Under the pieces are notes generated by a model that worked only from the letters and a program-made list of their open reading frames with translations, searched no databases and was not told the origin of the DNA. Of a DNA stretch of 32,000 bases, positions 11,311 through 13,053 are shown piece after piece; position 1 is the stretch's first letter, and each line of letters opens with the position of its first letter. A program made the translations under genes and the position numbers. This DNA is from Candidatus Saccharimonadota bacterium (GTDB taxonomy: Bacteria; Pseudomonadota; Gammaproteobacteria; Enterobacterales; Enterobacteriaceae). The DNA lies in the NCBI GenBank assembly GCA_000217635.1, contig CP001817.1, forward strand, positions 30,001-62,000. Reading direction: 5' to 3'.

Positions 11311-13053
11311 CTAAATTTTATGTTTTACAATTTTTTGATTAATTTTCCATAGCTTTTTTTTTTCTGTTATATTTAATCCTTCTTTGCGTTCTTTTGTAAG
11401 AAAATAAGTATATTTATATTCTAAATTTTGTATTTTTATTTTTTTTAACAATTCTAAAAATGTTGGATATATTTTATTTTTTCCAATCATATGATTCCAT
11501 ACAATTAAGTATTTAAATATTTTTTCTAATTTTGAATTTCGATAATATTCAATTAATTGATTAGTTGCAAGATTTGGATTTTTATGTAATATTTTTAGTA
11601 AATCTACAAAAATATTTATTCCGACTACATGAAATTTATTGATTTTTTTAATATTTTTAATTTCTTTTGCTAATTCTGGGTTTTGTAAAAGTAAGCTAAT
11701 TAATAATCGAATAGGTGTTTTTTTAATAAAGGTATTGAATGGTTTTTTTAATGTTTTTAATGTATTACATAATTTTTTAAATTGATAAATATCTAAGATA
11801 CCAGTTTTTTCTCCTAATAATTTTTGTAAATGTATTTTTATATTTTTTCCTGGAATTTTATTAATTAATGGCAGAATTAATCTACTTAATTGAATGCGAT
11901 CTTCAATTTTTCCTAATTGCATATTTTTAGAAATTTTATTAAATAAAAAATGAATATAATATTTCGGATTCTTGTATTCTTTTTTAAAATTTTCCTCTCC
12001 TTCTTTTAAAATTATACTGCTAGGATCTTCATTTTCAGGTAAAAATATAAATTTTACGGTACGATGATCTTTTAAAAAAGGTAAGATAAGATTCAAGGTA
12101 ATCCAGTTAGTTTTTTTTCCAGCATGATCGCCGTCGTAACAAAAAATAATATTATCACTAATTTGAAATAATTTTTTACAGTGCTCTGAATTAATTACAG
12201 TTCCTAATAAGGCTACAGCATAAATATTATATTGAGCTAAGGATAACACATCAAAATATCCTTCAACGACTATTATTTGTTTTGGTTTTAAGGTTTGTAC
12301 TGTTAACTCATAAATTCCATAAAGATTTTTATTTTTATAAAAAATTGGATTTTCCGAAGAATTTAAATATTTTGGTTGATTAATATTATTTAATTTACGA
12401 CCTCCAAATCCATTAATGTTTCCATATTTATCTCTAATTGGAAACATAATACGATTTCTAAATCTATCATAGAATTTTTTTTCTTTATTAATTATAATTA
12501 ACCCTGAATCTAATAAAATAGATGGTTCTAGTTTTTTTTTTTCAATATAGTTTTTAATTTGATTGTTTTGAAATGTTGCATAACCTAATAAAAATCGATA
12601 AATAATTTTTTTTGAAATCCCTCTTTTTAATAGATATTGATAGGCAATAGGATTGGAAGAAAAAAGGTTTTTTTGATAAATATTAGAAATTTCTGATAGT
12701 ATTGTATGTAATTTTTTTTTTATAAAAATAATATTTAACTTCTTTTGTTTTTTTTCTTTAAAAGGAATAATTATATTATGTAATGTGCTAAGCTCGGTAA
12801 TGCTGTCTAAAAAGTTTAATTTTTCGTATTCCATTAAAAAATCAATTGCATTACCATGCACTTTACACCCAAAACAATAAAAAAATTGTTTTTTTATTGA
12901 CAATAAAAGATGGTGTTTTTCATGATGAAACGGACATAATGCTTGGTAATTTTCTCCTATTTTTTTAAGCTTGAATCGTAAATTTATTAAGTCTATTATA
13001 TTAGTGCGTTCAAGTAATTCTTGGATAAAGTATTTTGGAATTTTTCCCATCAT
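11311..13053 (-). CDS. dnaG: DNA primase DnaG (intact ORF, but with an out-of-frame patch in the zinc-binding motif; see findings)
   Basis: 580-aa ORF. [23 protein letters not shown] aligns with E. coli MAGRIPRVFINDLLARTDIVDLI. CPFH...CFGC..[9 protein letters not shown] zinc ribbon and a TOPRIM region ([18 protein letters not shown]) are present. It lies between rpsU and rpoD as in E. coli. Confidence 0.95.
   Translation of the reverse strand: [580 protein letters not shown]

Follow-up and report, generated by a model that had tools for sequence, protein, structure and literature searches.

The stretch of DNA analysed here (the window) comprises 32,000 nucleotides, positions 30,001 to 62,000 of the GenBank record CP001817.1, and our subject within it is dnaG, the DNA primase gene, in which, as deposited, three short segments are read in a frame other than the ancestral one. 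CP001817.1, which dates from 2009-2011, is listed in Table 1 of PMC11193766 as the 444,925-bp genome of Buchnera aphidicola BCt from the host Cinara tujafilina, and the best protein matches of the window are all to B. aphidicola from Lachninae aphids. With a G+C content of 21.6%, the window includes rplK-nusG-secE, a transfer RNA (tRNA) cluster, metF, argG-argH, tsaD, cca, ligA, gltX, a block of flagellar genes and ppa, and has rpoD-dnaG-rpsU on its minus strand (see Table 1 below for the coordinates of dnaG and of all frameshifts).

Three out-of-frame patches in dnaG

The deposited dnaG product has Buchnera DNA primases as its homologues and carries the complete domain set of bacterial DnaG (CHC2 zinc ribbon, N-domain of the catalytic core, Toprim and a DnaB-binding C-terminus), with the Pfam domains PF01807, PF08275, PF13155/PF13662/PF01751, PF10410 and PF08278. 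We compared it with the four closest Buchnera (the relatives), namely that of Cinara confinis (LT667503.1, locus L021; 443,747 bp as listed in PMC11193766) and those of three Logan assemblies, to which it is 68-75% identical in protein sequence.

The first patch lies in the zinc ribbon, whose ligands C40, H43, C60 and C63 sit in invariant alignment columns and preserve the Cys-x2-His...Cys-x2-Cys arrangement. On the coding (minus) strand, the segment between an A5 and an A7 run reads HHLLLSI in frame 0, while the -1 frame carries the ancestral EKTPSF. The coding strand there is TGT CCG TTT CAT CAT GAA AAA CAC CAT CTT TTA TTG TCA ATA AAA AAA CAA TTT TTT TAT TGT TTT GGG TGT. Re-reading the minus strand, we recovered the same sequence, translation and coordinates as a preliminary description of this DNA had given, together with the open reading frame (ORF) that it had found to stay intact despite the shifts. 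Its proposal that the hidden -1 frame is the ancestral one is likewise borne out. The match lies well outside chance. Of the 120 best homologues, 119 keep the motif [ED]-x-x-PSF, the window being the sole exception (HHLL, within EKHHLL in frame 0), and the PF01807 score rises from 102.2 bits for the deposited protein to 124.3 bits when the frame is repaired. The spacing from the His to the next Cys ligand, 17 residues in 119 of those homologues, is 16 in the window. Frame 0 lacks both the [ED]-K-[TN]-PSF strand and the 17-residue spacing conserved in bacterial DnaG, the motif being found in the -1 frame.

DNA alignment showed what had changed at each of the two runs. At the first, all four relatives read GAAAAAAC (A6), in agreement with the one-base loss to A5 proposed in the preliminary description. 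At the second, the proposed gain from A6 to A7 has to be given up: the four relatives have AAT or AAC followed by A9, or C followed by A8, and encode N-K-K-K-Q or N-Q-K-K-Q, and the change is instead a loss of two, from A9 to A7. Under a -1/+1 model the ancestor would, moreover, have had a spacing of 16, at odds with the 17-residue invariance. On the strength of the DNA alignment and the spacing counts we therefore replaced it by -1/-2, for a net change of -3. What stands of the original idea of a compensated pair recoding the zinc ribbon is that the frame is kept open and that 7-8 codons are off-frame, with the two runs 20 nt apart; the polarity assigned to the second run was mistaken, and the pair does not stand alone. 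The comparison with sister dnaG genes that had been suggested showed all four relatives in frame at this point, and in none of them is there an in-frame sequence resembling HHLLLS.

Gene-by-gene DNA alignment against C. confinis, in which we looked for non-triplet gaps, brought out pairs 2 and 3, also in dnaG and both of the -1/+1 type. The out-of-frame stretches of the three pairs are 20, 26 and 29 nt long, the gap positions in the alignments being 25-42 nt apart. Among the genes compared, a scan for hidden frames found the three patches in dnaG and, elsewhere, only the terminal frameshifts of secE and fliF, and when the four relatives were compared with one another no hidden frames appeared in dnaG, tsaD, rpoD or cca. 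None of the patches shows decay of the old frame. When the 26 out-of-frame dnaG codons are translated in that frame, their amino acid identity is 77-81% to three relatives, which equals the gene average, and 58% to the fourth and most distant one, and the nucleotide differences within these codons fall mostly at old-frame third positions. Furthermore, the repaired DnaG is 71-78% identical to each relative, as against 68-73% for the three distinct relative lineages among themselves. Repaired DnaG is hence the least diverged of its clade, and relaxed selection on dnaG, which we had considered as an explanation, is ruled out. As regards the supply of long runs, dnaG has 3 of the 12 runs of at least 10 in the window.

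In its N-terminus the deposited protein matches the zinc-binding domains of known structure 1D0Q (E = 8e-17) and 2AU3, and HMMER opens a one-residue gap at the scrambled strand. It thus resembles the CHC2 domain of DnaG (PF01807) in its overall form, its four ligands and its flanks (102 bits), and differs from it in that the strand after the Cys-x-x-His knuckle is replaced and one residue shorter. An AlphaFold2 model of the deposited DnaG, computed from a 60-sequence alignment, has a mean predicted local distance difference test (pLDDT) score of 85 and still draws a strand at residues 48-52. The pLDDT over residues 41-50 is 66, compared to 81-89 in the flanking blocks; patch 2 adjoins a low-confidence linker (residues 100-106) and patch 3 lies within helices. 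Since the alignment drives the fold, the model says little on how well such changes would be tolerated.

Run-length frameshifts elsewhere in the window

The six changes in dnaG belong to a set of 15 frame-changing run-length differences in the 32 kb, the others (at least nine) being spread over eight further genes. Shortenings account for 11 of the 15, and every one is at an A or T run. The displaced parts of the eight other genes are still open and 67-84% identical to their orthologues (68-83% for the shifted tails of tsaD, metF and pmbA), and about ten of the events fall in genes for which 21 relative gene copies have none. The preliminary description had weighed two sequencing errors against a mutation followed by compensation and judged the errors less probable; this argument presumed an isolated event, and it no longer applies to a window with three such pairs in one gene and this many additional frameshifts.

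Several of these genes illustrate how the shifts act. In tsaD, an essential gene that is intact in all four relatives (345-369 aa), the ORF ends just before the conserved CTDNAAMIAY, and this segment is intact in another frame, where it is 81% identical to C. confinis. The shift in argG removes the TAA stop, and the ORF gains 19 codons (57 nt) that run into argH. Both termini of fliF are in another frame than the body of the gene, which is intact in the one relative covering the whole gene, and the 36-38 codons at the start of pmbA do not share the frame of the remainder. The break in fliE falls mid-gene; fliE is intact, with 111 aa, in both relatives that cover it. Its tract is the only site in the window that resembles a classical long-poly(A) slippage site. 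The six tRNAs of the window have no indels relative to C. confinis but, being also without long runs, say nothing about run-length errors.

Two side observations concern the flagellar genes. In the Illumina-based relative L025 (Logan SRR21069242), fliH and fliJ are each split at A10-A15 tracts (5280-5977 and 7353-7806), and frame breaks in this assembly occur only at such tracts and in flagellar genes; in the window, fliH and fliJ are intact, with in-frame A12 and A10 tracts. A G8 run at 26904-26911, conspicuous at 22% G+C, was considered as a further frameshift and rejected, for it is in frame in a fliM/N-like ORF, coding for GGG at a site that reads GDL in the relative.

At the scale of the whole record, C. 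tujafilina has 78,487 bp of non-coding DNA and 394 coding sequences (CDSs), the highest values among the similar-sized Cinara Buchnera rows compared from Table 1 of PMC11193766, with about 8-13 kb of extra non-coding DNA and 10-25 extra CDSs relative to those rows. Such an excess is consistent with many split genes genome-wide.

Table 1. Coordinates in the window of dnaG, its three compensated pairs and the run-length frameshifts of eight other genes. Run compositions are those of the coding strand unless marked; changes in brackets are relative to the relatives or to the ancestral frame.
Feature	Position	Strand	Details
dnaG ORF as deposited, 580 aa	11311-13053	minus	from the ORF list; operon rpsU-dnaG-rpoD
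Cys40-Cys63 codon span	12865-12936	minus	zinc-ligand codons Cys40, His43, Cys60, Cys63 all intact
dnaG pair 1, upstream run	12916-12920 (plus-strand T5)	minus	A5, relatives A6 (-1); ancestral frame left here; DNA alignment
dnaG pair 1, out-of-frame	12896-12915	minus	frame 0 HHLLLSI; -1 frame TPSFIVN, core strand of CHC2 zinc ribbon
dnaG pair 1, downstream run	12889-12895 (plus-strand T7)	minus	A7, relatives A9 (one C+A8) (-2); frame regained, one Lys codon lost
dnaG pair 2, upstream run	12748-12755	minus	A8; ancestral frame needs A9 (-1)
dnaG pair 2, out-of-frame	12722-12747	minus	frame 0 QKKLNIIFI; -1 frame TKEVKYYFY; relatives TKEAKKYFY/TKEAKTYFY
dnaG pair 2, downstream run	12712-12721	minus	A10; A9 in two relatives (+1)
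dnaG pair 3, upstream run	11980-11985	minus	A6; A7 in three of four relatives, A5 in the fourth (-1)
dnaG pair 3, out-of-frame	11951-11979	minus	-1 frame RIQESEILYS; relatives RIKKSEILYA/RIQQSEILYT
dnaG pair 3, downstream run	11945-11950	minus	T6; T5 in two relatives, run differs in the other two (+1)
secE, +1	2705-2711	minus	T7, T6 in C. confinis (sole comparison); last ~18 residues altered
metF, -1	5177-5184	plus	at A8; last 47 residues in another frame, 83% identical to C. confinis
argG, -1	3' end, 7440-7506		last A run (near 7445) A5, A6 in C. confinis; argH start at 7469
tsaD, -2	14451-14468	plus	at T8/A8 pair; ORF 13562-14482, 306 aa; tail in frame 3 to ~14600
fliE, -1	20816-20834 (A10 20825-20834)	minus	split mid-gene at A10-T-A8 tract
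fliF, +1	21190-21196		near 5' end
fliF, -1	22774-22781		near 3' end
fliG, -1	~23711		near 3' end; 307 aa, 325 aa in relative
pmbA, -1	31793-31799	plus	at A7 (A8 in relative); gene runs off window

Sources of the frame changes

Conservation of the old frame first raises the possibility that the DNA is correct and the product is recoded, with RNA polymerase slippage or ribosomal -1/+1 shifts on Lys codons restoring EKTPSF in some of the molecules. Poly(A) slippage has indeed been invoked for frameshifted yet conserved Buchnera genes (Tamas et al., 2008, as cited in later papers), conservation of the old frame is complete in the present case, and pair 2 has A8 and A10 tracts. The slippage-rescued frameshifts of Buchnera and Blochmannia (Tamas et al., 2008, and Wernegreen et al., 2010, both as cited in later papers) have coding-strand A runs and a conserved downstream frame, and in this they can be compared to tsaD, metF, fliE and pmbA. 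Their tracts, however, are long (about 9-10 or more) and conserved among strains, whereas the dnaG runs span A5-A10 (A5/A7, A8/A10 and A6/T6), only one of the six reaches the length of about 9 or more, compensation takes place in the DNA itself, and none of the shifts is shared by the relatives, all four of which are in frame, unlike what is expected of selected slippage sites. In a published survey, moreover, slippage becomes exponentially more frequent as runs lengthen, starting from an overall indel rate of about 1e-5 per nucleotide; runs of A5, A6, A7 and T6 are too short, and six corrections would have to coincide on each transcript. In a genome-wide survey, no reading frame was seen to be restored by transcription error. 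Recoding cannot rescue the old peptide, and as an account of the dnaG patches it is highly improbable.

Independent random miscalls on their own can be discarded as well. In a simulation that scattered 14 random ±1 errors over the 743 A/T runs of at least 5 in the window, with any pair within 45 nt scored as compensated, three or more compensated pairs arose with P ~1e-4, and about 60 raw errors per 32 kb were needed to bring P to 0.3-0.4. An open-frame filter must therefore have acted, whether through natural selection or through finishing guided by ORFs. The undecayed old frames and the low divergence of DnaG imply that the 15 indels, if they are present in the genome at all, are without exception very recent.

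Taking these results together, we think it probable that the deposited sequence is in error at all three patches of dnaG, the one that removes EKTPSF among them, and does not there reflect the true genome. As would be expected of an artefact, the differences are limited to homopolymer run lengths and the original frame shows no decay, and the anomalies in dnaG, tsaD and other genes are peculiar to this record while affecting essential, slowly evolving genes. A/T run lengths may have been miscalled in the pyrosequencing-era assembly of BCt (CP001817.1), and finishing would then have been steered by open ORFs, a curation step that we infer. Under this scheme, breaks in the middle of a gene would have been 'repaired' by altering a nearby run by one base, or would have gone unnoticed where two miscalls cancelled each other, and miscalls near gene ends would have been left, as in tsaD, metF, argG, secE, fliF, fliG and pmbA. 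Each dnaG pair contains one long run (A9, A9 and A7, respectively) that is a plausible raw miscall, and its partner, 7-10 codons away, could be a frame-restoring edit made at the wrong run. At its six runs the true gene would read A6/A9, A9/A9 and A7/T5, and its product would be an ordinary primase. The strong constraint on the DnaG protein, the scarcity of verified natural cases of compensation, the excess of non-coding DNA and CDSs in the record, and the confinement of frame breaks in L025 to A10-A15 tracts of flagellar genes all point the same way.

The characteristics of 454 homopolymer miscalls fit this proposal in part. In the same laboratory's genome of 2011, the sequence was obtained with 454 only, Sanger reads were used at contig joins and assembly was in Gap4, and CP001817.1 was probably produced on a 454-type platform of the same pyrosequencing era. 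Like such miscalls, the differences in the window involve only A/T run lengths, shortenings dominate and the frames are undecayed, and the date of the record and a laboratory using 454 agree with this source. Unlike them, they include compensating pairs and runs of 5-6, which are not expected, and an added finishing step is needed. We also looked for a second source of BCt and found no exact match for the DnaG, RpoD and RpsU of the window; no second BCt source was present in the 90% clusters of five window proteins, and a pattern scan of Joint Genome Institute (JGI) metagenomes that permitted either run length gave no match.

The competing possibility is that the indels are genuine and recent, weak repair and dense A/T runs having led, three times in the BCt lineage, to a frameshift followed by rescue at the next run. 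The first frameshift would have been sheltered briefly by polyploidy and a low demand for primase, and the primase made today would carry HHLLLSI, a 16-residue spacing and two more patches. Such compensation is a documented natural process in AT-rich endosymbionts: between Blochmannia chromaiodes and B. pennsylvanicus there are three compensatory cases per genome, no more than 20 bp apart and with less than 6 bp out of frame, which were verified by Illumina sequencing (Williams & Wernegreen, 2013, PMC3622351). The pairs in dnaG (-1/-2, -1/+1 and -1/+1) are compensated in the sense of that study. They are like the Blochmannia cases in consisting of non-triplet changes in A/T runs that regain the frame and in altering the amino acid sequence more than the nucleotide sequence, and in both systems uncompensated shifts lie only near gene ends. 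The window thus has the shape known from Blochmannia, where homopolymer compensation and 3'-terminal frameshifts are both established (PMC3622351), with mid-gene shifts compensated and terminal ones not. That all three pairs regain the frame, unlike random error, and that the four zinc ligands and a full-length ORF are retained, speak for genuine change too, as does, weakly given its dependence on the alignment, the strand kept at residues 48-52 in the AlphaFold2 model.

The differences from Blochmannia are nevertheless considerable. There the cases are in divergent genes, whereas here three are in one conserved essential gene, and the most conserved motif is hit; the limit of 20 bp between paired indels is exceeded, and the out-of-frame stretches, at 20-29 nt, are 4-5 times longer than in the verified natural cases (PMC3622351). 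Genuine indels would moreover have to comprise three recent events in the least diverged DnaG of the clade with none in 21 relative gene copies, leave the old frame undecayed at all of about ten loci, do away with the family's best-conserved motif and invariant spacing, and be accompanied by a tsaD frameshift just before CTDNAAMIAY. We accordingly regard genuine compensation as possible yet doubtful.

Several points tell against the explanation by errors in the record. It has to assume a curation or survivorship step to account for three compensated pairs, the chance test being unfavourable to it in its plain-miscall form. Natural compensation by indels is, besides, on record for AT-rich endosymbionts. 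Two of the six dnaG changes are at short runs (A6 to A5 and T5 to T6), which favours genuine indels; a 454 consensus rarely miscalls short runs. The platform of CP001817.1 is deduced from a sister project of the same laboratory, and so can be called 454-type with likelihood only. Finally, all three pairs are in one gene, and no uniform error model predicts such clustering. Neither the artefact nor the real-change model naturally accounts for all three pairs being in dnaG.

Implications for the record and for the Buchnera primase

If the patches are errors of the record, as we favour, CP001817.1 appears to have about one run-length frameshift per 2 kb in the window. Pseudogene, CDS and non-coding counts would then be inflated in comparative Buchnera studies, and scrambled peptides would enter protein databases, in which one cluster is represented by the 580-aa DnaG.

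If, on the contrary, the sequence is correct, which we consider unlikely, Buchnera BCt replicates its chromosome with a primase that is recoded in three patches, has lost the near-universal PSF strand and has shortened the otherwise invariant His-Cys spacing. Priming in vivo could then do without the PSF motif, and the zinc ribbon of the bacterial primase would tolerate replacement of its best-conserved motif. In that event dnaG would offer uncommonly strong evidence of compensatory frameshifting in a gene that is essential, and the proteins of polyploid symbionts, those of essential and conserved genes included, could change rapidly by frameshift followed by compensation.

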